Assembly (NCBI GenBank): GCA_013375475.1
Contig: JABXKD010000029.1
Span: 1 to 40,963 of the forward strand
Direction of reading: 5' to 3'
DNA: 40,963 nucleotides
Origin: Promethearchaeota archaeon
Lineage (GTDB): Archaea > Asgardarchaeota > Lokiarchaeia > Sigyniarchaeales > SOKP01
In this document: one piece after another, positions 656-17,560 of the stretch
How the letters are laid out: every line of letters begins with the position of its first letter
Numbering within the stretch: the stretch's first letter is position 1
Made by a program: the position numbers and the translations under genes
Notes under the pieces: model-generated
Told to the model about the DNA's origin: nothing
Databases searched by the model: none
The model's input: the letters and a program-made list of their open reading frames with translations, nothing else

Positions 656-677
656 TTTTTTTAAGTATATATTAATT

Positions 678-693
678 GAGAATAGATATTCAT
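678..693. promoter_or_regulatory. Palindromic operator, copy 1 (GAGAAT-agat-ATTCAT)
   Basis: Lies between a minus-strand TATA-like element (~697-703) and the NifX-like gene start at 655; matches the motif seen at four other promoters. Confidence 0.5.
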
Positions 694-924
694 AAGTATA
701 AAAGGTGATGATTATAATAAATAAATCCCTTCTATGAAGAGAAGTTATTAATAAGCAAAAATCGACAAAAAATTAGTAGTCCTTATACTCCTAGGAAATC
801 TAGGTGTATATATCACCATAATATGAAGTCTGATAAATCATAAAAGAATTTAAACAAGTACTTATATGATTTTTATATTCAAATGGAGAAGTTGAAAATC
901 TTCATAATAACAGGTAAAGGGTAA

Positions 925-1419
925 TTTAAAATCAACTTAGCTCAAAACTCAGAAGTTTCAAAACTTTTAAAAGGGATTGTTATTTGTAAACAAACTGGTA
1001 TATATTTATTAGATCTCATTTTAGATTCTGAAATTAATCCTATGTTGCTTTCTTCTTTTGTAGGAGCGTTATCATTATTTGGAGCGGAAAACATGGGGAA
1101 GATTGAAGAAATTACAATTAAGGGATTATCCATACAAATGATAATCGTGAATAAATTTGACCTTGTTTTAATAGCGATAATGGACAAACATTTCGTTAAA
1201 GAAGATATTAGGGAAGAAGCAGTAAAAGCGCTTGATATGTTTTATCACCTGTATAAAAACGAAATTAGCGATTGTACCGATGTTTCTCAGTTTGAATCGT
1301 TTAAACAAGTCTTATACGACCAAATTGTTGAGTACTTCGACCGAAGGAATGGAAGAAATAAAGAGAAAATTCGAGATTTCGGATTTTTCACTGAAGCAAT
1401 TGCTCAAACGAAAAACTAA
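925..1419 (+). CDS. Longin-like domain protein (Asgard type); start uncertain
   Basis: The frame is open from 925 (..LLKGIVICKQTGIYLLDLILDSEINPMLLSSFVGALSLFG..), giving the beta-beta-helix-beta-beta-beta-helix pattern of longin domains. The first ATG (1042) would cut off the first two strands. Confidence 0.6.
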   Translation, partial: FKINLAQNSEVSKLLKGIVICKQTGIYLLDLILDSEINPMLLSSFVGALSLFGAENMGKIEEITIKGLSIQMIIVNKFDLVLIAIMDKHFVKEDIREEAVKALDMFYHLYKNEISDCTDVSQFESFKQVLYDQIVEYFDRRNGRNKEKIRDFGFFTEAIAQTKN

Positions 1420-1469
1420 TGTATTTACTTTAACTCCTAAAGTGATACTTTATTTCTTTCCAATATTTT

Positions 1470-2354
1470 TTAAAAATTTTCCGTCTTTCTTTTAAAAATA
1501 ATATTTCCTTCTTTCACGGAAAAAATTCGCTCCATTAGGGAACATTTAGCTTTTAGTAAATAAAATACTTCTTTGTCCGGTATTTCCATACCATACAAGC
1601 TTTCGAAATTACCTTGGCCTTTTGATAATATCACCCCATCCTTTAAGAAGAAATGTTTCTTGAACTTATTAGATGTTGCTGGTAGATGGATGCCTGGTGT
1701 ACCGCTCCCTTCTATGACTTGGACCAAATCAATTAACCCAATAAATTCAGCGTCTTCTAAAGTAGCATCGTTGATAATAGGGGAAGCTCTAACCGAACAA
1801 ACAATTTCTAGATTTGGGAAGGTTTTAATAATTATTTCTACTAATAACTTATCAAATACAATCTCTCCTGCATTATCAAGTAAAATAAGTAAGTGTTTTG
1901 CATTCTGAAGAGATATTTTGAATTTTTCGTAATCATTTATAGCTAAGTTATCTGGAGTAAAGTTTTTAATATCTCTGATAAAATCTATTTTATGATTGGT
2001 ACCAAAGTCAATTGTATTTCCAAGGGCGGCTACTACAATTGCTTCAAATAAGGGATCTTTAGCGTTATTGACTAGTTCTTTAGCCTCATCGTAGAATTGT
2101 AAAGCTAACTGGTTGTATTCTTTCTTAATTGAAGCGTAGGGGTCTTTTACGTCTAAAGCTTCAGCAACAAGGTGGTATGCTACTTTACCGATTATCGGAG
2201 ACGCTTTTTTTTCCAAATCGAAACTCAGAAGGTATTCCATAAACTTCTTTTGAGTAGTTAAAATTTTTTCACGGGAAATATCTGGTTTCAACAATTGAAA
2301 GGCTCTTAACACTTGGTTAAAAAGACACGGTATACATTCGGGTTCTAATATCAT
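1470..2354 (-). CDS. DUF89/ARMT1-like damage-control metal-dependent phosphatase
   Basis: N-terminal ECIPC, GNxIDFG, LDNAGEIVFD, PIINDAT, SKGQGNFESL and LLKAKC motifs. Confidence 0.92.
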   Translation of the reverse strand: MILEPECIPCLFNQVLRAFQLLKPDISREKILTTQKKFMEYLLSFDLEKKASPIIGKVAYHLVAEALDVKDPYASIKKEYNQLALQFYDEAKELVNNAKDPLFEAIVVAALGNTIDFGTNHKIDFIRDIKNFTPDNLAINDYEKFKISLQNAKHLLILLDNAGEIVFDKLLVEIIIKTFPNLEIVCSVRASPIINDATLEDAEFIGLIDLVQVIEGSGTPGIHLPATSNKFKKHFFLKDGVILSKGQGNFESLYGMEIPDKEVFYLLKAKCSLMERIFSVKEGNIIFKRKTENF

Positions 2355-2386
2355 ATAAATCTATTCATTCTTTTAGGATCTTAAAT

Positions 2387-2396
2387 AAAAAAAAAA
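2387..2396 (-). terminator. Putative oligo-T terminator of the MFS gene
   Basis: T10 on the minus strand about 40 bp downstream of the MFS stop codon. Confidence 0.4.
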
Positions 2397-2434
2397 GATA
2401 AAATTTTGTAAACCAGCTTACATATGGACTGATT

Positions 2435-3772
2435 TTATAAATCTTGGATCGCTTTTTTCTTTGCTAGTTTTTCTTCGTCTGATAGCTCTACTTCGCCTCT
2501 TTTTACAAAGAATACTAAAACAAATGCAATTACAAAAAAGATGAGACCATCAAGAAGCAAAGACCCTGGACCGAAAAGATCTCGCAAACCTCCTACGATT
2601 CCCGGGCCAATTACAGCCGCTAACACACTAAAGAAGTAATAAAGGCCAGTATAAGTTCCAATTTTCTTTACACTAGGTGCTAATTCCCAGACTATTACAA
2701 TAGAGTTAACATTTACAAAAGCCCATCCAATACCGAACAAAACTAAGACAATCATAGTTACTGTTAGAGTTTGAATTAAAAAGCCAGTTAACATCGATAG
2801 AATCATAATAATCAAACCAATTTGAATGCACCTTTTCCTCCCAATTCGAGATGCTAGCAGAGACAATGGAAATGCTGCAATGATAAATGGGAGAGCAACA
2901 AAGTTGAACATAAAAGATGCAAACGCATCAGTTTGATTCAATATGCCATTCGGACCCGTAGCTGCATATATTGAGAAGAAAGATTCTAAACCTTGATATC
3001 CGATAAACCAAGCAAAAATAGCAAATAGTATAAAAAGTGTACTTTTATCTTCTTCATTTAGGATGTCTTTAAAACTAGCGATTAGACCTACTTTATCCTT
3101 TTGCGATTTGATTTTTCCTTCTTTTGCTTCAGCCTCTAGTAGAAGTTTATAACTATAAGCATCATTCTCTTTTACAGCTAATACGAGAACAATCAAAGCT
3201 ACAACCATGATAATCGATGCAATAATAAAAGTTAATGGTAGTCCAATAGTACCTGATATTAATCCCATTGTATAAGCAACGATTGCTCCAACGCCTCCCA
3301 TAATGTTAATAATAGCATTTGCTTTGCTTCTATGTTGAGGTTTAACAAAATCAGGCATTAATGCAACTGCTTGTGATCTATAAAAGCCCATACTTAGACT
3401 GAATAAGAACATCCAAATTAATAGAGTTGGTAGATTACCTGTTGGTAAAAATCCTGTAGGAATTAGAGCAAAGAAAATTGCAGAACAAATAACTCCAACT
3501 ATTATATAAGGTATTCTTCGACCGTATTTAGATCTTGTATTATCAGAGACTGTTCCCATGATTGGTTGTATGATTACTCCTAACATATTATCTAATGCCA
3601 TTAAAATTCCTACGACTAATCCGGCTAACACAAAACCAGCGAAATAGTCGTCTAGTTGTTGATTAACTCGAGTATTATATAAACTCCAAGAAATCCCAGT
3701 CGTAAAAAACGCTAAACCGATTAAAAAAGTATGTTTAATATCAAATTTTTCTTCAGATTTACTTTCTGCCAT
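2435..3772 (-). CDS. MFS transporter, GPH/SLC45-like sugar (glycoside) permease
   Basis: About 12 hydrophobic segments; QPIMGTVSDNTRSKYGRRIPYI loop; ALMPD; ASRIGRKR. Confidence 0.88.
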   Translation of the reverse strand: MAESKSEEKFDIKHTFLIGLAFFTTGISWSLYNTRVNQQLDDYFAGFVLAGLVVGILMALDNMLGVIIQPIMGTVSDNTRSKYGRRIPYIIVGVICSAIFFALIPTGFLPTGNLPTLLIWMFLFSLSMGFYRSQAVALMPDFVKPQHRSKANAIINIMGGVGAIVAYTMGLISGTIGLPLTFIIASIIMVVALIVLVLAVKENDAYSYKLLLEAEAKEGKIKSQKDKVGLIASFKDILNEEDKSTLFILFAIFAWFIGYQGLESFFSIYAATGPNGILNQTDAFASFMFNFVALPFIIAAFPLSLLASRIGRKRCIQIGLIIMILSMLTGFLIQTLTVTMIVLVLFGIGWAFVNVNSIVIVWELAPSVKKIGTYTGLYYFFSVLAAVIGPGIVGGLRDLFGPGSLLLDGLIFFVIAFVLVFFVKRGEVELSDEEKLAKKKAIQDL

Positions 3773-4101
3773 TTATAATTCACTTTTTTTTTTAGATGAA
3801 ATTTAAGAATTTAGAGAATATTATGTTTTCTTATTTAAATAGGTTTATGTAATAATAGCTCTGACTTTTAAGTGAAGTTCAAATCTCATTATTACAAAAA
3901 GTAAAAAAAAATACAGGTTTCTTTCAAGAGAAATCGTTTTTGTTGAAATTTTTACATTTGCTTAATTATGTCTCTCAAAATCAATTCACTGAAAGTTCCA
4001 ATCATTATTCCCTTATTAACGAAAGTCTCCCCATATATTTTGAAGTCTTTATCTGAGAGTTTACCATTCTTAAAAAAAATTAAATTGTGATTGTCTATTC
4101 A

Positions 4102-4299
4102 TTAAGCATTATCTCTTACTTTCACGAAGCAATCTTCACAAAAAAAAATTCTACGCATTTTGCTAGCATCATAAACCATATGCCCTGATTTATGCTTCGT
4201 TTCGCATCCCCAACACATCTTATATGCATTAGTTTGAACTAAATATTCATCGTCTGCCTTAAAAACATCGTCCTTTATTATCTCTTTATAACTTCTCAA
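4102..4299 (-). CDS. Small zinc-ribbon-like protein
   Basis: CWGC...CEDC pair; TTG start; preceded by a tandem operator and a TATA-like element. Confidence 0.65.
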   Translation of the reverse strand: MRSYKEIIKDDVFKADDEYLVQTNAYKMCWGCETKHKSGHMVYDASKMRRIFFCEDCFVKVRDNA

Positions 4300-4333
4300 C
4301 TTCTTAACTCATTTTTTTTAATGATTTTGAATT

Positions 4334-4365
4334 ATGGATTATCATTCATGTGAATTATCATTCAT
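4334..4365. promoter_or_regulatory. Tandem palindromic operators, copies 2 and 3 (ATGGAT-tatc-ATTCAT / GTGAAT-tatc-ATTCAT)
   Basis: Two abutting 16-bp copies downstream of a minus-strand TATA (~4375-4384) and upstream of the gene at 4299. Confidence 0.65.
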
Positions 4366-4520
4366 AATTCCAATAATATAAAAAGTACTTTTTTATTTAA
4401 GTTTGATGAATTAAGCTCATTTTAATTAATTATATTAAAGACTTACCTATACCAATATCTTTTAATATTGATTCTGCTGGTATCTTCTCAAATAAAAAAA
4501 ATATATAAAAAAAACAAAAA

Positions 4521-4673
4521 TTATAAATCAATTTTTACACTAATCGAGGTTATGTCTTCGGGGATACCTTTTGCCGATTTTAAATATCCCAAAAGCAGAT
4601 TTTCTAACATACTTTCCATAAACTCGTTTAAAGGAACCTTTTCATCGTTTACTTTTAAATTAATATCTGACAT
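4521..4673 (-). CDS. 50-aa hypothetical protein resembling the small C-terminal domain of some MobB/Fe-S proteins
   Basis: My translation: MSDINLKVNDEKVPLNEFMESMLENLLLGYLKSAKGIPEDITSISVKIDL*. It lies 45 bp downstream of the DtxR-like gene on the same strand and is below the track's length cut-off. Confidence 0.75.
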   Translation of the reverse strand: MSDINLKVNDEKVPLNEFMESMLENLLLGYLKSAKGIPEDITSISVKIDL

Positions 4674-4718
4674 GATTTCTAATTGCTGACTAAAAGATTT
4701 AAATTTTGAGTTTATTTT

Positions 4719-5114
4719 TTAAATATTTGTTTGAAAAACTCTGAGTGAAAGGTCTTCTAAAGCATCTGATATCTCAGGCGTTATACTGTGCTCTATTTTG
4801 CAGCATAGTTCGTCCAGTTTAAATGTATTGTCGACGCCTAGAACATCTTCAAAAAAGTGCTTTAGCCTATTATATTTATTAATAGTTGTTAAAGCGATTT
4901 TTTTACCTTTCGCTGTTAATCTTACTGATTTCCTAGGATGCCACTGTATGTAATCGTTCTCTTTGAGTTTATATAGCATACTTGTTACTGAAGCGGGTTT
5001 AACTTTAATAAAGCTAGAGATTTCTGAATTTGAGACCCATCCTCCCTTGTTTTTCTTGGACACAAAATAAATTGCTTTAAGATAATCTTCATATGTATCT
5101 TTAATTTGCGACAT
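4719..5114 (-). CDS. DtxR/MntR family metal-dependent transcriptional regulator (no FeoA/SH3 domain)
   Basis: EDYLKAIY, VKPASVTSMLxKL HTH, LTxKG, FFxDVLG, CKIEH. Confidence 0.92.
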   Translation of the reverse strand: MSQIKDTYEDYLKAIYFVSKKNKGGWVSNSEISSFIKVKPASVTSMLYKLKENDYIQWHPRKSVRLTAKGKKIALTTINKYNRLKHFFEDVLGVDNTFKLDELCCKIEHSITPEISDALEDLSLRVFQTNI

Positions 5115-5175
5115 AGCCCTCTAATTATGTTTTTTAAAATTTTCAAGGCTTAAAAATAATAAAATGAAAAAAAAA

Positions 5176-5556
5176 TTATTCCTTTTTCTCTAATTCTTCA
5201 ATACTTTTGGTTATATCATCAATTGCATTACCGATTCCTTTAAGTTCGGATTCCAAGTATTCTTTTTCCTGCTTTAGCATTGTTAATCTATCTATTGGCT
5301 CTAAGGGAACTCTTGAAGCATAAACCGGGGAACCATGCACAATTGGAGGAGGAAGAGCATAAAAAGGCTCTCTATACCCCCACCCTCTTCCATATCCTCT
5401 TCCATAGTCCCGCGCTATCCCTCGTCCTCTACCTCGTCCATAACCAAATCCTGGACCGTAAGCACTCCCTGGAAAGTCATATCCTGCACAATATCCTAAA
5501 CCTCTTCCAGTTCTTGTTCCAAGACCTCTGGGACCAGTTCTATCTCCACCTGGCAT
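5176..5556 (-). CDS. DUF5320 family Gly/Arg/Tyr-rich protein with C-terminal coiled coil
   Basis: MPGGDRTGPxGxGxRTGRGLGYC start, GYGRG repeats, LKQEKEYLESEL heptads. Confidence 0.88.
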   Translation of the reverse strand: MPGGDRTGPRGLGTRTGRGLGYCAGYDFPGSAYGPGFGYGRGRGRGIARDYGRGYGRGWGYREPFYALPPPIVHGSPVYASRVPLEPIDRLTMLKQEKEYLESELKGIGNAIDDITKSIEELEKKE

Positions 5557-5614
5557 TATTTTATTCTCATCTCCTTATACTTTTTTTTGTATTTTTTTTA
5601 AAATTGGATGTGAT

Positions 5615-5632
5615 TGTGAATAATCATTCACA
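5615..5632. promoter_or_regulatory. Palindromic operator, copy 4 (TGTGAAT-aatc-ATTCACA)
   Basis: Perfect 7-bp arms, just downstream of a minus-strand TATA (~5639-5648) of the DUF5320 gene. Confidence 0.7.
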
Positions 5633-5888
5633 TGATCCTATATATAAATTATTTAACACCATATTTAAGTATTTTGAAACTAAATTATATTTTAATCATA
5701 AATGAACAAATTATAAAACTGTTCACACTTCTTAAAGATTTACCCAATAGTGAAGGTTTAACTTGAAAAAGTAGTAAGCTTCAATATTTTCCTAGTTTTA
5801 AATTATTAAATTAGCTCAAACTAAAGGTAATGAATTCAGTCTTAACCAACCAAATTGTAAGGTTAGTGTCATCTCGCTTGGTTTTCTC

Positions 5889-5920
5889 GAAAATTTTATA
5901 TATTCTGAATAATTATTCTT
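5889..5920 (+). promoter_or_regulatory. BRE/TATA promoter followed by operator copy 5 (CTGAAT-aatt-ATTCTT, 5905-5920)
   Basis: GAAAA-TTTTATATA then the GAAT-N4-ATTC core, 20 bp upstream of the GTG at 5941. Confidence 0.6.
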
Positions 5921-5940
5921 TAATATAAATAAAAAAAGAT

Positions 5941-6366
5941 GTGAATCAAAAGTTGAAAATAGCTATATGTACAGAAATGGGAAGCGTTTCGCAACATTTT
6001 GGTCGAGCTCCGGAATTTACTTTTGTTTCGATTGAAAATAACAAAATAGTTGATAAAAAAGTGTTGAATAACCCTGGACACGAAGTTGGAAGCATACCAA
6101 GGTTTATTAACGATCAAGGTGCGAAATGTATGATTGTGGGTGGAATAGGTCATAGAGCAATTGATTTTTTTAACCAATACGGAATCGAAGTTATCAGAGG
6201 TGTTGTTGGTAACATTGACGATGTTATTGCAAAGGTTTTAAACGGGACATTAGAAGGTGGTGAAAACATTTGTTCTCCGGGTGGAGGTAAAGGTTATGGT
6301 GTAGAAAAAATACACACTGAGGCAGACGAAAATTACGAACATAATCATCATAACCATCAGCATTAG
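5941..6366 (+). CDS. NifB/NifX family protein with His-rich C-terminus
   Basis: VSQHFGRAPEF, NPGH, MIVGGIG, GTL motifs; tail EHNHHNHQH. Confidence 0.9.
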   Translation: MNQKLKIAICTEMGSVSQHFGRAPEFTFVSIENNKIVDKKVLNNPGHEVGSIPRFINDQGAKCMIVGGIGHRAIDFFNQYGIEVIRGVVGNIDDVIAKVLNGTLEGGENICSPGGGKGYGVEKIHTEADENYEHNHHNHQH

Positions 6367-6440
6367 CTGAATAACTCAAATATTTGAACAATTAAATTTT
6401 CTAGCAACTATATTAAAATCAAAAATAGTATTCCATACAG

Positions 6441-6899
6441 ATGCCTAAAGATAAGTTTGATGAATATGTAGAGAATCTTCAAAACATTATTTACGAAGAA
6501 GAAATCAAGGAATATAATGAACGCATAGTTTCATTATATCACAAGCCTAAAAACTGGGGTAAACCTCCTGATGATGAGATTACGATTTCAAAAACTTACG
6601 AGGGCCCTTGTGGTGATACCATGTCATTCTTTTTAAAAATAAAGGACAATAATATTGAAAAGGCTAACTTTCTTACTGACGGTTGTGGAGCTTCAGTGGC
6701 AACAGGGTGCCAAACTACACTTCTTATAGAAAACAAATCAGTAGATGATGCTGAAAAATTAGATGCAGAAGACATAGACGCTGCGTTAAACGGTTTACCC
6801 GAAGATCACAAACATTGCGCCGAACTGGCGATAACAACCCTAAAAAGAGCGATAGATGATTATCACATATCAGTAAGGTTTAAAAAAATAAAGAACTAA
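6441..6899 (+). CDS. IscU/NifU-N family Fe-S scaffold protein
   Basis: PKNWG, GPCGD, DGCGAS and LPEDHKHCAELA provide the three conserved Cys. Confidence 0.92.
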   Translation: MPKDKFDEYVENLQNIIYEEEIKEYNERIVSLYHKPKNWGKPPDDEITISKTYEGPCGDTMSFFLKIKDNNIEKANFLTDGCGASVATGCQTTLLIENKSVDDAEKLDAEDIDAALNGLPEDHKHCAELAITTLKRAIDDYHISVRFKKIKN

Positions 6900-6956
6900 A
6901 ATCAAGAGATTCTGGATTTTGCTTTTAAAAATAAGTTTCTTTTATACTAAGGGAAA

Positions 6957-7889
6957 ATGAAATATGTTTATGGACCTGTTCCTAGCAGACGATTAGGGAG
7001 GTCTTTAGGAATTGACCCTATTCCTTCAAAAACATGCGATTATCAGTGTATATATTGTCAATTGGGAAAAACGACTAATTTTACTAGTGAGAGAAAAAAT
7101 TTTTATCCCTTAGAAGAAATTTACGAAGAAATTGAACAAAGTATTAACAAAAATAAAGGGGAGTTTGATTACATAACCTTTGTAGGTAGTGGTGAACCTA
7201 CCTTATGCAAAAGTTTAGGAAAACTGATTTTGAAAGCAAAGGAATTATCTAAAAAACCGATTTGTGTAATTACTAATGGTAGTTTATTATACCAAGACGA
7301 TGTAAAGGATGATCTTATCTTTTCTGACGTTGTTTTACCAACATTAGACGCAGGAGATGAAAAATTATTCATTAAAATTAATCGTCCTCATCCCTCCATC
7401 AAATATGAAAAAATAATTCAGGGTTACATTGATTTTCGGAAAGAATTTAACGGTAAATTTTGGATAGAAATAATGGTAATGAAGGGAATTAACGATTCTA
7501 GGGAAGAGTTATTTAAGATTAAAAAGAAGATAGATTTGATTCAACCCGATAGAATTGATATTAATGTTCCAATAAGACCTCCTACTGAAAGTTGGGTGAA
7601 AATTCCCGACCAAGATGTAATACCAATCCTAAACGATATTTTTGGAGATTATAATAATATAAACTTTCCTGAACAAGGAACATTTAGTGTTTTTGGTTTA
7701 AATTTTGAAAAGGAATTAAAGACTTTACTTGAAAGGCATCCAATGAGACTAGAACAAATTACTGAAACATTTAGTTCAAAAGCGGTTAATGAGCAAGATT
7801 TATTAGATCAATTGAATACTCTAGCATCCCAGAATAAGATTAAAAAAGTAATTTACAATAACCAGACTTTTTGGAAATTAACTAATTAA
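6957..7889 (+). CDS. Radical SAM Fe-S oxidoreductase (COG0731-like), possible C-terminal winged helix
   Basis: YGPVPSRRLGRSLGID, CDYQCIYC (CxxxCxxC), GSGEPTL, ITNGSLL. Confidence 0.9.
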   Translation: MKYVYGPVPSRRLGRSLGIDPIPSKTCDYQCIYCQLGKTTNFTSERKNFYPLEEIYEEIEQSINKNKGEFDYITFVGSGEPTLCKSLGKLILKAKELSKKPICVITNGSLLYQDDVKDDLIFSDVVLPTLDAGDEKLFIKINRPHPSIKYEKIIQGYIDFRKEFNGKFWIEIMVMKGINDSREELFKIKKKIDLIQPDRIDINVPIRPPTESWVKIPDQDVIPILNDIFGDYNNINFPEQGTFSVFGLNFEKELKTLLERHPMRLEQITETFSSKAVNEQDLLDQLNTLASQNKIKKVIYNNQTFWKLTN

Positions 7890-7910
7890 CCAATAACTCA
7901 ACTATTAGCT

Positions 7911-8402
7911 ATGCCAGTTTGCACGAAATGTAAAAAGGAAAAAGAGTTGCACCACCTTGATAAATTTGATGACAAATTCATATGTTATCAATGTTTATAT
8001 CAGAACAATAAGCCGTTTAAGATCTTTCCAATCGGTTTTGTAGAAAATCTATTAGAACGAGGGGAAGGATTTGGTTTGAAGGGGAGTAGAAATGATGTCT
8101 CTAAAATCCGTCTTTTTGAATCTCAACGACCTTTTCTTTACAAGTTAGAAGAAGATAAATGGATTACTGTTGTATATTATTTTCATAAACAGTGTAAAAT
8201 TCGATCGACCTTTTCTCGAGGTATTGATGGGAAGAAAGTAGGTATTTTCGCTTCTCGGACGCCTAATCGATTATCTCGCATTGGAATTACTAATGTTAAA
8301 TTAGTTAAAATTGAAGATACCACTTTATTCGTCAAAAATCTCGATGCGATTAATGGTACACCAATTCTAGATATTAAATTAGGTTCTAAAACGAGATGGT
8401 AA
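7911..8402 (+). CDS. TrmO/TsaA (YaeB)-like SAM-binding protein with N-terminal zinc finger
   Basis: PIGFV, GIFASRTPNR..RIG, LDAINGTPILDIK; N-terminal CTKC...CYQC. Confidence 0.8.
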   Translation: MPVCTKCKKEKELHHLDKFDDKFICYQCLYQNNKPFKIFPIGFVENLLERGEGFGLKGSRNDVSKIRLFESQRPFLYKLEEDKWITVVYYFHKQCKIRSTFSRGIDGKKVGIFASRTPNRLSRIGITNVKLVKIEDTTLFVKNLDAINGTPILDIKLGSKTRW

Positions 8403-8428
8403 TACAAATTAAACTCGTTAAACAAGGG

Positions 8429-8863
8429 CTAAGTTATATTTATATATATATTTGGGATTATTGCATTGTTTGGACAATCCTTAAAACATTTTAAACAATT
8501 ACTACACTTATTCATTGATTTATTATTAAATTCGATGTATTCTTCGTTTGTGCTTGGTTCAACGCAAAGCTTAAATAAATTTTGAAAGCAGAAGTTTGAC
8601 TCTAAACATTTTTTACAAACGGTACATCTCTCCTTATCGATTTCAAAGTCAATTAAACGCCCCTCCTCTAACGAGATTACCACTATAGCGTTGTGCTCGC
8701 AAACATCTACACACTTTAAACATCCTTTACATTTATTATAATCGACATATCGAAGCGAATCCCTAAAAAAGATTGCCTTTGGAGGACAAGAGTAAGAGCA
8801 CTTTTCACAACGGATGCAAAATTGTGGGTTTATACTTATAGGAAATAATTTTTCCGAATGCAT
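8429..8863 (-). CDS. Polyferredoxin, about 4x[4Fe-4S]
   Basis: CIRCEKCSYSCP, CKGCLKCVDVCE, CTVCKKC....FC, CSNCLKCFKDCP. Confidence 0.88.
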   Translation of the reverse strand: MHSEKLFPISINPQFCIRCEKCSYSCPPKAIFFRDSLRYVDYNKCKGCLKCVDVCEHNAIVVISLEEGRLIDFEIDKERCTVCKKCLESNFCFQNLFKLCVEPSTNEEYIEFNNKSMNKCSNCLKCFKDCPNNAIIPNIYINIT

Positions 8864-8884
8864 GTCGTTTTAGTTGATGAAATT

Positions 8885-11284
8885 CTAAAATTTGTTTTCT
8901 AATCTATCTATAATGTCGTTTTGGATTGGAATTCCTAAATCAATAAAAGTAGCGTTATACCCTCCAACTTTCACGATTAAATCTGCGTAATTTTCAGGAT
9001 GGATCTGTGCATCCTTTAAAGTTTCGGTTGAAACCACATTTGGTTGAATCTGCATCCCCCCTTTATCAAAATATGTTTTTAACAAGTAATAGAACTTTTC
9101 GATATTTTCTTGAGTTTCTAAGTTTTGGGGATGTAATCGCACATTAACAGCTACTCCATTCATAGCGTAATCGTAATTTAATTTTGCGATTGAATTCAAT
9201 ATTGCGGTGATTCCGTTCTTTTCAACTTTATTCACGGGAGATAAACTGTTTGAGATGGGTCTTCCTGCTTTTCTCCCATCAGCTGATGGTCGAGTTAAAA
9301 TACCTTCCATTACATGGATGCCCATTGAGTAAGCTCCCGCATTATATCGTCCTCCCCTTAAAGGTTTATTCTTCCTTACCTCTTGTGTAAATAAATCCCA
9401 TAATTCAATAGCAAAGGAATCAATCTCAGCACCATCGTTCCCCCACTTTTCGTAATTATTAATTAATTTTTGGCGGTAAACTTCATTATCTTCAAAGTTT
9501 GAATTGAGAATACTTATAAGATCTGGTAAAGTCATTGACTTTTCGTCGTAAACGACTTTTTTAATGTTATACATAGAATCAACTAAAGTAGCAAACCCAT
9601 AAGCAGTAATCGAAGAATAATTATATTTTGCCCCTCCACATACGTAATCTTTCCCACTTTCCAAGCATCCATCAAGCGTAGCAGACACAATCGGGTGTTG
9701 AAAATAGTTCATCACTACTCTATCCCCTACTTCGGCAATCTTCACAGATTTTTCAATGTTAAATTTAAGCTGCCGTGTAAAAGCGTCGTAAAATTGATCG
9801 TATGTGATAAACTCTCCTGGATTACCTGTCTGTAAACCATCAATATTCTTTGAGAAATTGCTATATCCATTGTTTAAAGTTAATTCTAACACTCCTGGTA
9901 AATTAATGAACATCCTAGCTGTTGCTGAAAAACTGTTTCCTTGACCGGTGGGCTCCACACATCCAATTATAACGTAATTCTGGGCGTCTTCTAGGGAATA
10001 ACCGGTATTTTGAAGCGCGGGAACTATAATTTCATCGTTATAAAAAGCGATACCTGAAGTGTGTTTAAAAACTTTAATCGCGTTTTCAAAGAATTCTCTT
10101 GGAGTTTTCTTATGAATTCTAACTGAAAGATCAGTAGTAAAAACCTTTACTTTCTTATATGCTTCAAGAAAAAGGTAAGATAACTCATTTGTTGCGTCTT
10201 TGCCATTTGAATCCATACCAGCAATAGTAATTGTTTGTGTGTTTTGACCAAGAGCGTTAGCTACTAAAGTAAAGTCTGTAGGTAATATTGTAATGTTCCA
10301 AGTTAATTTTAAATTGAGTTCTTCTATTAATTCTAACGCGTCTTCTCTATCAATTTTCCCGTTTTTAAGATCTTGAAAATAGTAAGGCCAGAGAATTTGA
10401 TCTAATCGACCAAGGGCCACAACACTTCGCTGGTAAGTAATATTTATGATATTTTGAGTAAAATTTATGAGTTGAACTGCCTCGTAAAAAGTTTCTGGGG
10501 TAGTTTCGGTAAGTTTTTTCAACATAGCTCCGATAATTTCAAGCTCTTTTTTCCGTTTTTCGTTGTTTTGAGTTTCTGCCATTTCAAGAGAAAGTGTTGA
10601 AAACCTTTGCAAAAACTCTATAGCAGCTCTGTAATAAATTTTAACAGCTTCGTAGAAGTTATATTTTTCTTGAAATTCTTTATCCACTTTCTCTAAGCGG
10701 GATTGAAATGATTCAGCTTCCTCAATAATTCCTCTATATCCAAGTTTTAAAAGCTTTTCGTAGCCAGCGCATAAATGTCCTTCTGTCGTTCCAATTTGAA
10801 CGGACACATTTGGAGCTAAGGAAGTGATTTTCCCCTCTCCTGTGACCAGTTCTTCTTCCCGTAATTTCTTACTAATACGACCTTCTAATAGCGATTTTTT
10901 TCTCCAAAATGGGATCATTTCGAGTAACTCATCAATCTCCGGCTCGTCGATAAAAAATGGTTGAAGTTTTCTTCTTCTTAGCTTCTTATATGTTGATCTC
11001 TTCTCTAAACTGTTATCATAGCGTTGAAAATCGAGATTGATTTTTTCGCCTAAATTTTTGCTCGTTTCGTTTCCAACCAGTAATTCATCGTCTCTAATAA
11101 AAATGGTCATATTTTTTAGAGTGCGTGCTATAGATTTCGCTCTCTTAATGATTTCGGGATCGTCTGGATATTGTTTATAAATCTCAGTGAAAAATCTCAT
11201 GCGTTCGATACACAATTCATACTTGCTTGATAGCATGTTATTTTTGAGATTATTTATCCGTTTGGAAGGAGTTTTAATAATCAA
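8885..11284 (-). CDS. Glycyl radical enzyme (PFL2/eliminase-like), substrate unknown
   Basis: ELLVG, LGRLDQ, DATNELSY, active-site GCVEP, KWGND, ADGR, LKDAQxHPENYxDLIVKVGGY. Confidence 0.93.
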   Translation of the reverse strand: MIIKTPSKRINNLKNNMLSSKYELCIERMRFFTEIYKQYPDDPEIIKRAKSIARTLKNMTIFIRDDELLVGNETSKNLGEKINLDFQRYDNSLEKRSTYKKLRRRKLQPFFIDEPEIDELLEMIPFWRKKSLLEGRISKKLREEELVTGEGKITSLAPNVSVQIGTTEGHLCAGYEKLLKLGYRGIIEEAESFQSRLEKVDKEFQEKYNFYEAVKIYYRAAIEFLQRFSTLSLEMAETQNNEKRKKELEIIGAMLKKLTETTPETFYEAVQLINFTQNIINITYQRSVVALGRLDQILWPYYFQDLKNGKIDREDALELIEELNLKLTWNITILPTDFTLVANALGQNTQTITIAGMDSNGKDATNELSYLFLEAYKKVKVFTTDLSVRIHKKTPREFFENAIKVFKHTSGIAFYNDEIIVPALQNTGYSLEDAQNYVIIGCVEPTGQGNSFSATARMFINLPGVLELTLNNGYSNFSKNIDGLQTGNPGEFITYDQFYDAFTRQLKFNIEKSVKIAEVGDRVVMNYFQHPIVSATLDGCLESGKDYVCGGAKYNYSSITAYGFATLVDSMYNIKKVVYDEKSMTLPDLISILNSNFEDNEVYRQKLINNYEKWGNDGAEIDSFAIELWDLFTQEVRKNKPLRGGRYNAGAYSMGIHVMEGILTRPSADGRKAGRPISNSLSPVNKVEKNGITAILNSIAKLNYDYAMNGVAVNVRLHPQNLETQENIEKFYYLLKTYFDKGGMQIQPNVVSTETLKDAQIHPENYADLIVKVGGYNATFIDLGIPIQNDIIDRLENKF

Positions 11285-11407
11285 ATTCTTCTCTGAAATT
11301 TAAATTTGTAAATATTGTAAATTATAAATCCACAATCTAATAAGTATTTTTAAACTTTAAAAAATAAGTAAAATCGCTTAATAACAATTATTATCTAATC
11401 GTTCGAA

Positions 11408-12214: not shown

Positions 12215-12273
12215 AATATATAAAATGAAGAATTTTCAAAAAGCTTCATATTCATTTAATCTTTAGAAGAAAT

Positions 12274-13053
12274 ATGGTGTTTCCAAATTATCCAAATAAA
12301 TATAATGAAAAAACTATGGTTCAAGCTAAGGATTTTTGGAAGTATAAGAAAGAACTTGGTGTATTTCCTGATATTGAACCTCCAAAGGGAGTTATAATAT
12401 GTTATTCCCCCACAATTCTAAATTATATAGTAGAGCATTACTCTCTTACTCAGGTTGACAATGTTCATGCAAATAATTTTTATCTCTTAAACGATTCTGA
12501 CAAAAAAATTGCTATTTGTGGGACTATTGGAGTAGGGGCTCCCGTTGTAGGAATTTTATTAGAAGAACTTCACGCTTTTGGTACAAATTTCTTTATATCA
12601 ATAGGGACTGCTGGATCTCTCCAAAAAAATCTTAAATTAGGAAGCCATATAATTTGCGATAGGGCGATTAGGGACGAAGGAACTTCGCATCATTACGCTT
12701 CAAGCGAAAAATATTCATATCCCTCTAAAACTTTGACAGATAAAATGATCGAAGTAGCGAACCAGATGGATGTAAATTATCACACTGGAACAAGTTGGAC
12801 GACTGATGCTCCATACCGTGAAACTCTAACTGAGTTAAAACATTACAGAAACGAGGGCGTAATGACAGTTGAAATGGAAGCTTCCGCTATATTCGCGATC
12901 GCAAAATATCTGAATATCGAAGCAGGAGTAATTCTTACCATAAGCGATTATTTGACCGAAGAAAGGTGGGAGCTTCATTTTCACCTAACTAAACAGCATC
13001 TTCATACTTTATTTATGTTAGCTAAAGAAACTTTAAATTCACTATTATTCTGA
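12274..13053 (+). CDS. Nucleoside phosphorylase (PNP/UDP family)
   Basis: GVGAP, IGTAGSL, AIRDEGTSHHY, WTTDAPYRET, VEMEASA, ISD. Confidence 0.92.
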   Translation: MVFPNYPNKYNEKTMVQAKDFWKYKKELGVFPDIEPPKGVIICYSPTILNYIVEHYSLTQVDNVHANNFYLLNDSDKKIAICGTIGVGAPVVGILLEELHAFGTNFFISIGTAGSLQKNLKLGSHIICDRAIRDEGTSHHYASSEKYSYPSKTLTDKMIEVANQMDVNYHTGTSWTTDAPYRETLTELKHYRNEGVMTVEMEASAIFAIAKYLNIEAGVILTISDYLTEERWELHFHLTKQHLHTLFMLAKETLNSLLF

Positions 13054-13140
13054 GGATTCTAAATTCATTTCCCATCATTTAAAAATGCAATTTACTTATT
13101 AATGATATTAAATTTAGTTTGTATAATAGAAATCTAATAG

Positions 13141-14889
13141 ATGGTAAGAATGAGCGATCAGGAAGGAAATAGAGATAATCCGTATTCGTTTGATGATTAT
13201 ATTTTTGTTAAAAATAATTTTAATTATTATAGAGATGATGAATTTTTTCAAGCCTTAGTTAAAAAATATCTTCCCTTTAATGAACTTGAAAAAATTGACC
13301 TAGAGCTTCAAGAACTTTCAGACATCGTTTCGTTTCGATTTAAAGCTCTCGCTGACGAAGCAACTAGGCTTGAAAATCGAGTAAAATGCACGCTTATTCA
13401 GCATTACGATGCGTATAATCATCGCATTGATAAAATAAAAAGATGCTCCGAAACAGAAACGCTTGAGCGTGAAATCTTTGATCTCGGATTATTTGATCCG
13501 AAGCGAAATAGTCCTTGGAGTAGATTCGTTAAAATGTTTTTACTCTACCAAATCGGTGAATCTGGAGTAATGTGCCCTATAGCTTGTACTCATGGTGCTG
13601 TAGAATTACTTCAAAAATACGAAAACGAACTTGAACCAGAAGCCTATAATATATTGACATATCTTCGAGACGGTATTGGAGGATATAAACTAGGTTCGCA
13701 GTTCGTAAGTGAAATCCAAGGTGGTAGCGATGTTCCAGCAAATCTCGTCGAAGCCGTTTTCGAAGAAGAAGAAGGTTCCGATGGCGTTTCAAATTGTTGG
13801 CGGTTGTATGGTCAAAAATACTTTTGCTCAGCAATGCAATCAGACTACGCAGTAGTAACCGCTAAACCAAAAAACGTCTCATCATCAACTAGAGTTGCCG
13901 CTTTTGTAGTTCCAGCCTGGCTTCCCGGAAACAAAGAAAAAGAAATTAGAAATTCCTATACTATTGATAGATTAAAACAAAAACTTGGAACTGCCGAATT
14001 GCCTACAGCAGAAATCACATATAACGGCGCTGTCGCTTATCCTGTTGGACCTTTAGAAAAGGGTTTAGCAGATATTGTAGGCATTGTGCTTTCATTATCA
14101 AGACTCCACGTTGCTCTTGGCATGGCAGCAGGATTGCTGAAAGTAACAAGAGAAGCAATTTTATATTCTCAGTTTAGAACTGCTTTTGGTGTTCCAGTCT
14201 CTTCTTTTCCACTCATGATTAACCAAATTAATGATATAAACCACAACGCAATGAGGAGCGCGGCAGGAGCGTTTAAAGTATACTCCGAATACATCCATTT
14301 TAACGAAGAACTCATCAGCGGGATAAGAGAACTACAAAAAATTGAAGACCTTACTGAACGAAAAAGGCGTTTTAGATTACGAGAGCTTATAATGCTGCAA
14401 AAAATAGTTGTAGCTGACGATGCACCCGCTATAATTCGGAAAGCAATTTCGTTTTTTGGTGGACACGGAATAATGGAAGATTTTATCGATTTTCCTCGAT
14501 TACATCGAGATTCCTTAATAATGGAATTATGGGAAGGTCCACGAAATGTTTTACTTGCCCAAATACATCGTGATTTCCAAAGGGTTGCTGAATGGTACTC
14601 CGCTGATGATTTTATTAAGGATTTACTTGAAGGAGTGGATCAAAAAACTATTGGAAATTTAACTACTGAGTTTTCAAAAATAATATCACACGATACACTT
14701 TTGAGGAACGACGAAGAAACCTTAGAGATTTGTCGAGATTGGGAAAGAATATCGAACAATCTCTTTCATATTTATCAAGATCAAGCTCTTATTGAATTAA
14801 ATTATAAGGGAAAACCTCTTAAATTTTCAAGGTTGTTGCGTAAGTTTAAAAAGAAGCCGGAAGAGAAAGAGATTTTGGTAGAACTTTAA
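13141..14889 (+). CDS. Acyl-CoA dehydrogenase family, AidB-like
   Basis: CPIACT, SEIQGGSDV, LYGQKYFCS, RLKQKLGT, RTAFG, FGGHG, LWEGPRNV. Confidence 0.85.
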   Translation: MVRMSDQEGNRDNPYSFDDYIFVKNNFNYYRDDEFFQALVKKYLPFNELEKIDLELQELSDIVSFRFKALADEATRLENRVKCTLIQHYDAYNHRIDKIKRCSETETLEREIFDLGLFDPKRNSPWSRFVKMFLLYQIGESGVMCPIACTHGAVELLQKYENELEPEAYNILTYLRDGIGGYKLGSQFVSEIQGGSDVPANLVEAVFEEEEGSDGVSNCWRLYGQKYFCSAMQSDYAVVTAKPKNVSSSTRVAAFVVPAWLPGNKEKEIRNSYTIDRLKQKLGTAELPTAEITYNGAVAYPVGPLEKGLADIVGIVLSLSRLHVALGMAAGLLKVTREAILYSQFRTAFGVPVSSFPLMINQINDINHNAMRSAAGAFKVYSEYIHFNEELISGIRELQKIEDLTERKRRFRLRELIMLQKIVVADDAPAIIRKAISFFGGHGIMEDFIDFPRLHRDSLIMELWEGPRNVLLAQIHRDFQRVAEWYSADDFIKDLLEGVDQKTIGNLTTEFSKIISHDTLLRNDEETLEICRDWERISNNLFHIYQDQALIELNYKGKPLKFSRLLRKFKKKPEEKEILVEL

Positions 14890-15029
14890 GTCTCCTTAGG
14901 GAAAGGTGTATTTAAAAGAGATTTAGAATTCTCTTTGATAGTGGGACTGTTAATTACCAATTGTAGATCAGTCTTAAATTATAAATTCAAATGTTGTTTT
15001 ATTACATTATTAGAAGAATTGTGATAAAT

Positions 15030-15884
15030 GTGAATTTTGAGACTATTAACTTTGAGTTAAGAGAAAATGGAATAGGGATACTAACGCTTAATCGTCCCAA
15101 CAAACTAAATGCTATGTCTTTTCAGATGATTAAAGATTTACACGCATTATTTGATTCTTTAATGGTAAATTTAGATTGTCGTGTTGTTATATTAAAAGCA
15201 GAAGGGAAAGCGTTTTGTGCTGGCTTGGATTTGAAAGAATCGACGATTTTGCAATCTAAAAAAAAGCCACCAGAATTGAAAGAAAAGTTCCATTTTCTAA
15301 ACGCTCCCGATAAGGATATTATTAAAGCTAAATTATACGCTCAGTGGTATACCAGTCATATTATCGTAAAAATGCGTAAAATTAGTCAACCAATCATCGC
15401 TTTAATTCAAGGCGCAGCATCTGGAGCTGGTTTCGCATTTTCTTTAGCGGCAGATATTAGGATTGCTAGCAATAACGCAAAGTTTAATAATGCATTTATC
15501 AACGTTGGATTTTCTGGTTCAGACCTAGGATCTAGTTATTATCTTCCTCGACTTATAGGGATGTCAAGAGCAACAGAGATTTTATACACAGGAAGATTTG
15601 TAGATGCTTATGAAGCTGAAAAGATAGGATTAGTATTAAGTGTAGTTGAAGAAGCAAAATTACTTGATACAGCTATTGAACTAGCAGAAAATTTGCTACA
15701 TAAAAGCCCTTTAGGGTTAAGAATGACTAAACAAGCACTCAATTTATCTCTTGATTCTCCAAGTCTAGAAACGATTCTTCAATTAGAAAATCGCGCACAA
15801 ATGCTTTGTTCTGCATCAGATGATATTATGGAAGGAATTCAATCCTTTTTCGAAAAAAGAGACCCAAAATATCCCTTGAGATGA
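15030..15884 (+). CDS. Crotonase superfamily enoyl-CoA hydratase/isomerase (paralog 1)
   Basis: LNRPNKLNA, FCAGLDL, QPIIA, ADIR, LPRLIG. Start moved from 14991 to GTG 15030 by alignment with paralog 2 (xNFETI) and a GTGAT ribosome-binding site. Confidence 0.9.
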   Translation: MNFETINFELRENGIGILTLNRPNKLNAMSFQMIKDLHALFDSLMVNLDCRVVILKAEGKAFCAGLDLKESTILQSKKKPPELKEKFHFLNAPDKDIIKAKLYAQWYTSHIIVKMRKISQPIIALIQGAASGAGFAFSLAADIRIASNNAKFNNAFINVGFSGSDLGSSYYLPRLIGMSRATEILYTGRFVDAYEAEKIGLVLSVVEEAKLLDTAIELAENLLHKSPLGLRMTKQALNLSLDSPSLETILQLENRAQMLCSASDDIMEGIQSFFEKRDPKYPLR

Positions 15885-15917
15885 GAATTAGAACATAAAA
15901 TATCAAATTAAAAATAA

Positions 15918-16772
15918 GTGAAAAAAATGAATTTTGAGACAATAAAATTTGAATTGAAAGAAAATGGGATTGGAATATTATCCCTAAATCGCCCTAACAA
16001 ATTAAATGCAATTAACTTCCAAATGGAACAGGAATTACACGAGGTATTTGACCACCTCACAATGAATTTGGATTGTCGCGTTTTAATTTTAAAGGCTGAA
16101 GGAAGAGCTTTTTGCGCTGGTACTGATTTACAGGAAGGTTTAGTCTTAAACACGAAAAAAATCCCTGAAGGTTATGAGAAATATTACTTTCTAAATACAG
16201 CAGAGCCAATTAAAAAAAAAATGTATCATCAATGGCGGATAAGTTCAATTTACGTAAAAATGCGGAAGATTAGTCAACCAATCATTGCTTTGGTTCACGG
16301 TGGAGCTGCTGGGGGAGGGTTTGGGTTCGCAATGGCTGCAGACTTTCGAATTGTAGCTCCCGATGTTAAATTTATAAACGCCTCAATTAATATTGGTTTA
16401 ACTGGAGCAGATGTAGGAGGTAGCTATTTTCTTCCAAGATTAATTGGATTGTCTAGAGCTTCTGAAATAATGTATACTGGAAGAGATGTGGGAGCTGAAG
16501 AATCGGTAAAAATTGGATTGGCTCTAAGATCCGTTGACTCGAAAGATTTGTTAGAATCCGGGATGGAGCTAGCGAATTTATTGTTAAAAAAAAGCCCCTT
16601 AGGGTTAAGAATGACAAAACAAGCTCTAAATTTAACTCTGGATTCTCCAAGTTTGGAGACTATATGCCAATTGGAAAATGCTAGTATTGTGCTTTCCTTT
16701 AGTTCTAAAGACGTGAACGAAGCCTCGGCAGCGTTTTTCGGCAAAAAAGATCCCAAGTATCCTCTTCGCTAA
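15918..16772 (+). CDS. Crotonase superfamily enoyl-CoA hydratase/isomerase (paralog 2)
   Basis: Same motifs as paralog 1 and collinear with it over the full length; likely start is ATG 15927. Confidence 0.92.
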   Translation: MKKMNFETIKFELKENGIGILSLNRPNKLNAINFQMEQELHEVFDHLTMNLDCRVLILKAEGRAFCAGTDLQEGLVLNTKKIPEGYEKYYFLNTAEPIKKKMYHQWRISSIYVKMRKISQPIIALVHGGAAGGGFGFAMAADFRIVAPDVKFINASINIGLTGADVGGSYFLPRLIGLSRASEIMYTGRDVGAEESVKIGLALRSVDSKDLLESGMELANLLLKKSPLGLRMTKQALNLTLDSPSLETICQLENASIVLSFSSKDVNEASAAFFGKKDPKYPLR

Positions 16773-16816
16773 AATGTTTATAATGCATCTTAAAATGTTT
16801 GTAATGCATCTTAAAA
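16770..16816 (+). repeat. 21-bp tandem direct repeat (2.2 copies)
   Basis: TAAAATGTTTATAATGCATCT / TAAAATGTTTGTAATGCATCT / TAAAA; one mismatch; begins at the stop codon. Confidence 0.9.
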
Positions 16817-17010
16817 AGAACAAATCCATTTTATAAGAGGCTTTCATCAAGCAGATAAGGGTTCGATCAATCAAAGTTTTAACCTATTGCTCTCTCATCT
16901 TGAAAGAATCCATAGAAATCTGAGCAAAAAAATTTCTCTTTATTCTAGTGATATATCAGATAAATCTTCTGAACGGGACTTAAAATAAAACAAAATAAAA
17001 AAAATAGAGT

Positions 17011-17520
17011 TTATTCTCTAATTTGTAATTTTGGAGTAATAGGTGAAGCTCCACCCATATTAGTTATAACTGGACAATGAGAAAACACTTTTTCCATCAA
17101 TTCTTCTATTTTTTCTTTTGAAGCGTCTGCTTTAATCCTAACAACAGGTTCGAGTTTATCGTAACCCGCTAGTTTAGTATCGTCAATTCCAAAAATTGCT
17201 CCAAGATTAATATGGCCACGAGAAAATACTTTCAACTCATTGATTTTTATATCCATAATCTTGGCCCAAAATTTCGTAACTGCTACTATACACGCTCCCA
17301 CAGAAGCTAAAATTACTAGTAGTGGAGATGGACCTTCATTTGTACCATCTAAACCCGGAGGCGCGTCAATTAGTATTTCAAAAGGCTTTGCTCCCATCGT
17401 GCACTTAACTTGCATACCTTCTGATAACATCTCACACTCAACATTGAAATTCTTTTCCCCATTATTCCAATCATTCTTTATTGCTTCATATGTCTCTTTA
17501 AAGCTTGGCATTTTTTTCAC
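17011..17520 (-). CDS. OsmC/Ohr-like family protein
   Basis: IDAPPGLDGTNEGPSP, LASVGAC and HCPV (two conserved Cys); likely start is ATG 17511. Confidence 0.88.
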   Translation of the reverse strand: MKKMPSFKETYEAIKNDWNNGEKNFNVECEMLSEGMQVKCTMGAKPFEILIDAPPGLDGTNEGPSPLLVILASVGACIVAVTKFWAKIMDIKINELKVFSRGHINLGAIFGIDDTKLAGYDKLEPVVRIKADASKEKIEELMEKVFSHCPVITNMGGASPITPKLQIRE

Positions 17521-17538
17521 TTTTTGATGATATTTTTT

Positions 17539-17560
17539 ATTATGAATGAGTATTCATAAT
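17539..17560. promoter_or_regulatory. Palindromic operator, copy 6 (ATTATGAAT-gagt-ATTCATAAT)
   Basis: Perfect 9-bp arms, about 20 bp upstream of the OsmC-like gene. Confidence 0.7.

Follow-up and report, generated by a model that had tools for sequence, protein, structure and literature searches.

Bacterial genes for iron-sulfur (Fe-S) cluster assembly are controlled by regulators such as IscR, SufR, RirA and, for suf, Fur; one repressor coordinates scaffold, carrier and its own gene, and a cysteine-ligated cofactor is the usual sensor. Archaeal members of the DtxR family, such as Archaeoglobus MDR1, repress via palindromic operators downstream of the TATA box, and archaeal DtxR regulons were reportedly treated by Leyn and Rodionov in 2015. 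In Desulfovibrio vulgaris, DVU2106, which belongs to the orange protein complex (orp) system, is an enhancer-binding protein. According to the available sections of two reports, the orp operons of that bacterium have sigma-54 promoters, require IHF and have DVU2106 as cognate regulator (PMC6345978, PMC3897727). DeoR of Bacillus subtilis, a member of the SorC family, has as its dra-nupC-pdp left operator ATTGAACAAAATTTCAAT, which corresponds to TGAA-N6-TTCA with an AT-rich spacer (available sections of PMC11229326), and TroR of Haloferax volcanii has the motif TTTAGGC-N3-CCTAAA (PMC10783522). For Asgard archaea, the literature searched, in the parts of it that were available, holds no described pair of transcription factor and operator. 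Here we explore a stretch of 40,963 nt (hereafter the window), contig JABXKD010000029.1 of assembly GCA_013375475.1 from Promethearchaeota archaeon (Lokiarchaeia, Sigyniarchaeales, SOKP01), in which the palindrome RTGAAT-N4-ATTCAY lies upstream of NifX-like and other genes. The palindrome is very probably the mark of a conserved regulon of Fe-S, sulfur-handling and redox genes in Asgard archaea, and it is most likely read by a DUF134 (PF02001) protein.

All six copies of the palindrome that an initial annotation had placed in the window were found again in the sequence. Three are exact (4350-4365, 5616-5631 and 17542-17557), those at 678-693 and 4334-4349 carry one mismatch and the one at 5905-5920 carries two. 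Once aligned, the sites show conserved flanks, so that the whole palindrome spans 22 bp, ATTATGAAT-AATT-ATTCATAAT, with the core TGAA-N6-TTCA; the copy at 17539-17560 is palindromic over 22 bp except for the central 4 bp. Enrichment over shuffled sequence, which had been proposed as a test of the motif, was found at zero and at up to one mismatch. Using 100 shuffles per mismatch level, the window holds three exact matches vs 0.03 expected (three were reached by 0/100 shuffles) and seven matches with up to one mismatch vs 1.19 expected (seven reached by 0/100), while with up to two mismatches there is no excess (19 matches vs 16.3 expected, 19 being reached by 24/100 shuffles). The whole assembly (3.92 Mb, 32.5% GC) has five exact matches, three of which are in the window. 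Below, this assembly is labelled G000, related genomes Gnnn, loci in these relatives Lnnn and contigs Cnnn.

A weight matrix, hereafter PWM2, was trained on 103 distinct sites from relatives only (consensus ATTATGAATAATTATTCATAAT). It ranks the sites at 17542, 5616 and 5905 at the top of G000; at a score of at least 18 it yields nine matches in G000 vs three in a reversed-genome control, which is a modest genome-wide specificity. Two further one-mismatch matches in the window, one (4087-4102) at the Zn-ribbon stop codon and one (7357-7372) within the radical-SAM coding sequence, score below 10 and were kept outside the set. The motif itself, searched in five spellings, is not mentioned in the available parts of the literature searched.

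Conservation upstream of orthologues had been named as a second test, and it was found for the NifX-like, DUF5320-DtxR, Mrp/NUBPL, IscU, Zn-ribbon, OsmC and TusA-YeeE-DsrEFH genes. The related genomes are non-independent samples, yet the proteins encoded there are only 50-86% identical. In 18 larger related loci we found 56 sites with 60 open reading frames (ORFs) within 250 bp downstream, namely 23 NifX-like, 12 DUF5320, six Mrp/NUBPL, five DtxR-type, two IscU and one OsmC, five of other families and six without family, four of which are Zn-ribbon homologues. When all 5+5 gapped palindromes were counted without bias TGAAT-N4-ATTCA ranked first, and it occurs in 15/18 DUF5320 upstream regions of the relatives vs 5/3546 background upstream regions. 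Orthologues of the NifX-like gene behind site 5905 have a site 33-62 bp upstream, and orthologues of the NifX-like gene behind site 678 also have the site upstream (e.g. L035:8884). The Zn-ribbon protein has ten homologous matches in related loci, four of them adjoining sites, with the site 27-86 bp upstream. OsmC orthologue promoters carry a site in 15 of 20 cases, at -34 to -115 and mostly at -46 to -57, and TusA promoters in eight of 12, the four without being second copies.

A scan of public genomes took as its query the short DtxR/MntR-family gene embedded in the window at 4719-5114 (hereafter E). The E clade (at least 46% identity) was seen only in Promethearchaeota metagenome-assembled genomes, and 42 of its 48 loci there have a site at most 750 bp upstream; two of the six misses have short flanks, three are of paralogue type and one is a further locus. 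None of the 32 outgroup loci has a site, though outgroup GC content differs. Since the motif is both enriched over shuffles and conserved upstream of orthologues, the regulon is well supported. Exact-core counts are near control in G012 (5 vs 3) and G020 (4 vs 2), both without E, where the matches are mostly coding or low-scoring.

The positions of the sites resemble those of repressor operators in known archaeal promoters. As measured they lie 20-59 bp upstream of start codons, within the distance of about 20-75 bp annotated initially, and the TATA-like box annotated directly upstream of the site at four promoters (678, 4350, 5616 and 5905) is indeed readable in the sequence. Site 5616 begins 8 nt after TTTATATA on the minus strand, the tandem pair lies 34 and 50 bp before the TTG at 4299 that starts the Zn-ribbon gene and directly downstream of its TATA-like box, and site 5905 is 20 bp from the start codon if this is GTG 5941, or 32 bp if it is TTG 5953. 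OsmC promoters have the TATA-like box about 30 bp upstream of the site, which places the site over the expected start site. Most DUF5320 promoters have two sites around a (C/T)TTAAATA box, one directly adjoining its upstream edge and the other about 25 bp downstream of it, over the expected start and ahead of a Shine-Dalgarno sequence and ATG. The palindrome would thus be the operator of a dimeric helix-turn-helix (HTH) repressor. Because the sites lie between TATA box and start, over the start or on both sides of the TATA box, this repressor would shut off a small regulon through promoter occlusion.

The identities initially assigned to the genes behind the sites (two NifX-like, DtxR-type, DUF5320, IscU, radical SAM, TrmO_N and OsmC) were confirmed by Pfam (Table 1). 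In G000 the proposed regulon would consist of three NifX-like units (one continues with IscU, radical SAM and TrmO-like genes, another with two MinD-ferredoxin ATPases), together with Mrp/NUBPL, the DUF5320-DtxR-50aa operon, the Zn-ribbon gene, OsmC and TusA-YeeE-DsrE/E/H. An identical NifX-IscU-radical SAM-TrmO-like gene order, with sites, is found in G022. Contig C281 abuts the start of the window, because a single Mrp/NUBPL gene is split between C281:1-549, its N-terminal part, and the first gene of the window; synteny in relatives agrees. One site of this contig (C281:725) lies between Mrp and a gene for a 305-aa protein, and another (C281:3350) lies 59 bp upstream of the third NifX-like gene, which is followed by the two MinD-ferredoxin ATPases. 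Three sites, C265:10731, 10844 and 10906, are upstream of TusA-YeeE-DsrE-DsrE-DsrH. The PWM sites C17:5384 (MBL-fold gene) and C285:4156 (Zn-ADH-like gene) are considered unconfirmed members, since genome-wide specificity is modest and both are single sites far from the islands.

Table 1. Putative operator sites and associated genes in the window (mismatches to RTGAAT-N4-ATTCAY; E-values from Pfam).
Feature	Position	Strand	Remarks
Mrp/NUBPL P-loop ATPase, C-terminal end	3..236	+	PF10609 positions 175-245 of 246
NifX-like (Nitro_FeMo-Co), putative target	263..655	-	PF02579, E 6.5e-16
Putative operator site	675..696, core 678-693		one mismatch; 22 bp upstream of NifX-like start 655; PWM2 15.5
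Zn-ribbon protein, 65 aa, CxxC...CxxC, putative target	4102..4299	-	from translation; without Pfam family
Putative tandem operator pair	4331..4368, cores 4334-4349 and 4350-4365		centres 16 bp apart; PWM2 12.4 and 19.0
50-aa ORF, last gene of DUF5320-DtxR operon	4521..4673	-	without Pfam family
Short DtxR/MntR-family protein E, 131 aa	4719..5114	-	PF01325 E 1.6e-15, PF02742 E 2.6e-8
DUF5320, first gene of operon behind site 5616	5176..5556	-	PF17253, E 2.3e-22
Putative operator site	5613..5634, core 5616-5631		exact; 59 bp upstream of DUF5320 start 5556; PWM2 22.2
Putative operator site	5902..5923, core 5905-5920		two mismatches; overlaps TATA-like box of NifX-IscU-radical SAM-TrmO-like operon; PWM2 21.6
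Operon behind site 5905	5941..8402	+	NifX-like 5941/5953-6366, IscU 6441-6899, radical SAM 6957-7889, TrmO_N-like 7911-8402; Pfam
OsmC-like, putative target	17011..17511	-	PF02566
Putative operator site	17539..17560, core 17542-17557		exact; 30 bp upstream of OsmC ATG 17511; PWM2 24.4

At the level of domains, and known here from genes alone, an ORP-like gene set is present in the window and C281. It shares with the orp system of D. vulgaris the PF02579 proteins, the two MinD-ferredoxin ATPases, Mrp/NBP35, divergent operons and occurrence in anaerobes. The two differ in control, since archaeal promoters with a repressor-type palindrome are found here whereas Desulfovibrio uses activation, and in extent, since the regulon here adds IscU, DUF5320, OsmC, TusA-YeeE-DsrEFH and the DtxR-like gene.

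We estimate at roughly 0.6 the probability that the palindrome is read by the DUF134 protein, which is predicted to combine a DeoR-type HTH with a Cys4 knuckle. Phyletic patterns point in this direction. Within the genus, where counts refer to 34 genomes each at least 85% complete, DUF134 was found in 28, including G007, G009, G012, G019, G045 and G049, all of which lack E, and it was found in 10/10 other Promethearchaeota genomes tested. Four of the E-less genomes of the genus that have DUF134 (G007, G009, G012 and G019) keep sites at OsmC (27.6, 19.8 and 23.5) and DUF5320 (22.9). Five E-less genomes from other families of the same order, two of them single-contig, all have DUF134, in four cases with a copy about 3 kb or less from NifX-like genes. 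Sites score 27.9 and 26.8 in G032, 22.2 in G038, 29.1, 27.2 and 26.6 in G035, 17.4 in G030 and 16.0 in G033, the last in a locus of 57% GC. Outside the genus DUF134 lies in, or at most about 3 kb from, site-bearing NifX islands in G032, G035, G038 and G054-G057, the distance to NifX-like genes being at most 3 kb in G054-G057; a perfect ATGAATAATTATTCAT is present 185-220 bp upstream of DUF134 in G054, G055 and G057. In the genus, an imperfect but conserved copy, TGAATAATTATTxx, stands in DUF134 promoters 25-45 bp before the ATG.

The protein itself also fits. In its recognition helix, S-Q-x-T-(F)-S-R-I-L, the residues S, Q, T and SRIL are invariant in 41/41 distinct Asgard sequences, with P, S or T at x and a near-invariant F; the four C-terminal cysteines are invariant as well. 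An invariant helix suits an operator that does not change, whereas that of E varies. The DeoR DNA-binding domain is matched by a profile of 11 DUF134 proteins (7bhy, E 4e-7; 8r7y, E 6e-6), and by analogy the geometry of the site would suit the DNA-binding domain of DUF134, as the DeoR operator shares the TGAA-N6-TTCA core. The HTHs are homologous and their recognition helices, SRPTVSRLL in DeoR and SQPTFSRIL in DUF134, are alike, and DeoR is a promoter repressor, as DUF134 would be in the role proposed. The differences are clear. DeoR has a SorC sugar-phosphate effector domain where DUF134 has the C-terminal Cys4 knuckle, its targets are in nucleoside catabolism rather than among Fe-S and sulfur genes, and the promoters here are of the archaeal TATA/TFB type. 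According to the available sections of its description, a DeoR tetramer occupies a bipartite operator of 39 bp (PMC11229326), whereas here palindromes are single, in tandem or spaced by 61 bp. DUF134 would bind DNA at the sites and repress from there, and its Cys4 site may act as a sensor of metal or Fe-S status. Among the regulators of bacterial Fe-S assembly, which belong to unrelated families (Rrf2, DeoR-like SufR, Fur), DUF134 has no counterpart by family, and its Cys4 binding of metal or Fe-S is a prediction. For DUF134 (UPF0251, PF02001) the literature searched, judged from the entries as listed, holds no functional study, and for DUF5320, judged likewise, nothing relevant.

Several observations weigh against DUF134. 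In the genus its gene lies away from the island, a site scoring at least 12 is near only 7/28 DUF134 loci, and the genus DUF134 promoters have nothing better than the imperfect site. In a small sample from three bacterial genomes, 0/5 DUF134 loci have TGAAT-N4-ATTCA or a positive PWM2 score; the pairing of DUF134 and site is not universal in its Asgard form. In G020 the NifX-like genes lack sites. E, for its part, stands behind the site in almost every genome that has it, as expected of an autoregulated local regulator. Finally, DUF134 was not found in G000, where the family search gave 0 matches and the best tblastn match has an E-value of 0.49. In close relatives DUF134 has a neighbour gene that in G000 maps to C49:3414-4478, on a contig of 4480 bp, and this neighbour faces a contig end also in G020, G051 and G022 (L308, L309 and L310), where DUF134 was likewise not found. 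Since the neighbour gene stops at the contig end, these absences probably reflect a recurrent assembly break, and the DUF134 gene of G000 most likely lies in the gap just beyond the end of C49. This explanation is unproven: the other flank of the relatives' locus has no match in G000, and contigs from three runs containing the window, when placed on a close relative's DUF134 locus (at least 80% likeness), covered the DUF134 gene only in patches, with none bridging it.

The regulator could instead be E, as the initial annotation had suggested for the embedded DtxR-like protein. E would then bind the palindrome as a metal-loaded dimer and repress its own operon and the other targets, with a C44-type DtxR paralogue (40-46% identical) substituting where E is missing; we consider this improbable. 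E was compared with B. subtilis MntR (1on1, 6kta), DtxR (1bi0) and TroR, and the site with the DtxR box and the TroR motif. A winged HTH and a dimerisation/metal-binding domain with ligands place E in the DtxR/MntR family, and it matches the MntR structure 6kta (E 8e-14). The ligands C105-x-x-E108-H109 are invariant (12/12), and position 10 is D, E, N or H (D10 in the window protein). The family resemblance thus comprises both domains, the C-x-x-E-H ligands and an autoregulation-like position, but E lacks the SH3-like domain and the ancillary metal site, the positions of which are occupied by Y81 and K85, and the targets here are in Fe-S and sulfur trafficking, not metal uptake.

In favour of E, besides the upstream sites of its clade given above and its invariant metal residues, orthologues (at least 48% identity) occur in 17 of 24 same-genus relatives and 16 of these 17 loci have the site, the miss being a 2.3-kb contig. 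Where E is apart from DUF5320 the site stands directly before E or its Zn-ribbon operon (L044-L048), and in G055 and G056 the E type is the sole DtxR-family gene and sites are strong; both genomes, however, have DUF134 too. The C44-type paralogue shares much of the recognition helix of E. Against this, the recognition helix of E varies while the motif does not, and strong sites are not limited to genomes with E. They are kept in G007, G009, G012 and G022 and occur also in G032, G035 and G038. In G007, where E is missing and DUF5320 is directly followed by the 50-aa ORF, the DUF5320 and OsmC sites score 22.9 and 27.6; G022 has four sites scoring 19.6-24.6; and G012, without E, NifX, DUF5320, Zn-ribbon and 50-aa ORF, keeps its OsmC site at 23.5. 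The E type was not found in G030, G032, G033, G035 and G038, of which G032 and G038 are single-contig, yet the sites of these five genomes reach scores of up to 29. Both single-contig genomes have long-type DtxR loci, which are free of the site. Eight of the 34 genus genomes are without an E-grade copy (G049 has a fragment only), and two of the 26 copies found have in-frame stops. The site is also unlike the TroR motif and, in agreement with the earlier remark that it is not a classical DtxR box, the DtxR box gave 0 matches at up to three mismatches. The persistence of strong sites in genomes without E thus speaks against E as the regulator, and its gene would rather be a conserved target of the regulon, perhaps a second-tier metal sensor.

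The E gene decays repeatedly in the genus, with in-frame stops in G001, G046 and G053, a 49-aa fragment in G049 and a clean absence in G007. The C44-type paralogue was rejected as the only reader: G006, G021, G055 and G056 do not have it, and its own promoters are without site except for a perfect core in G007. This core, TGAAT-N4-ATTCA, lies in a genome that has lost E, about 75 bp upstream of the paralogue (L023/L072), whereas five of six paralogue promoters viewed have no site. The paralogue (C44:23562-23975; L068:9562-9975) has a different ligand set, with Q-R at 9-10, D13, H81 and C/E/H/H, and it is flanked by genes for a 254-aa protein and a ribbon-helix-helix protein rather than for transporters.

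Another transcription factor, present order-wide, might read the site, DUF134 and the DtxR-like gene being mere targets, which we rate as no likelier than a role of E as the reader. All reader assignments rest on co-occurrence, DUF134 was not found in six of the 34 genus assemblies, and the imperfect sites of the genus DUF134 promoters point the same way. Yet no other regulator recurs at the islands, an HTH_20/DUF7347 gene being present in only one of 18 loci, and the TGAA-N6-TTCA geometry matches the operator of the nearest solved relative of the DUF134 HTH. The initial annotation had also allowed for a Fur- or TetR-type regulator encoded elsewhere. The second half of this idea is probably right, with DUF134 as the best candidate, but the Fur type finds no support: a Fur-family gene is absent from the genome, where the sole PF01475 match (28 bits) falls on residues 156-214 of a tandem Lrp/AsnC-type protein of 313 aa. 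The DUF5320, Zn-ribbon and 50-aa proteins were rejected as readers because G012 (100% complete) is without all three and retains the 23.5 site at OsmC.

That the palindrome is no protein operator at all, but an RNA hairpin in 5' leaders or a remnant of duplicated promoters of paralogous NifX genes, is very improbable: some sites would be transcribed, site 17542 (1/5) folds better than shuffles (-6.1 kcal/mol, z -6.7) and many targets are paralogues, but hairpins at 4/5 sites do not surpass those of shuffles (-0.3 to -6.6 kcal/mol), specific bases rather than pairing are conserved (G3, A5 and T6 are invariant in the 103 distinct sites, whose selection used a PWM favouring them), the distal sites of DUF5320 promoters precede the TATA box, and the palindrome stands before unrelated genes (OsmC, TusA, Zn-ribbon, DUF5320) with flanks that diverge while the site stays.

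Some further features of the island and its relatives were noted. The DUF5320 gene is Gly/Arg/Tyr-rich and is opposed by a longer open frame on the other strand (window 5280-5705, +), because of which longest-ORF gene callers pick the wrong strand, here and in relatives. The 50-aa ORF is kept in 26 related loci (tblastn) at 34-80% identity and full length, downstream of the DtxR-like gene or DUF5320, and has the look of a genuine small gene. A pyruvate formate-lyase-like glycyl radical enzyme (8885-11284, -) adjoins a polyferredoxin (8429-8863, -), and the radical-SAM gene at 6957-7889 could encode its putative activase. To the left of the window, C281 extends the island with two more NifX-like genes, two MinD-ferredoxin ATPases, an Fe-S protein and a molybdopterin oxidoreductase. 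In several genomes, small GTPase genes of the Ras/Roc family directly adjoin regulon promoters and are divergent from NifX-like genes (L039:4218-4760, L064:10561-11103, C285:4228-4782). In G022 a CDF cation-efflux transporter is fused to a NifX-like domain (L063:8427-9665) and lies on the same strand immediately downstream of a NifX-like gene with a 24.6-scoring site, which links the regulon to metal transport.

The palindrome provides a testable operator with a defined target list and two distinguishable candidate regulators. Through it the ORP-like, NifX-like and DUF5320 genes of anaerobes, which are poorly understood, are linked with IscU and sulfur relay genes under what would be a single control. 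More tentatively, DUF134 may be the master regulator of Asgard archaea for the trafficking of Fe-S clusters and sulfur, sensing iron or Fe-S through its Cys4 site like IscR, with, in the present lineage, the DtxR-like sensor, DUF5320 and the 50-aa protein nested as a second input. If true, this would give the closest prokaryotic relatives of eukaryotes a metal circuit with two tiers.

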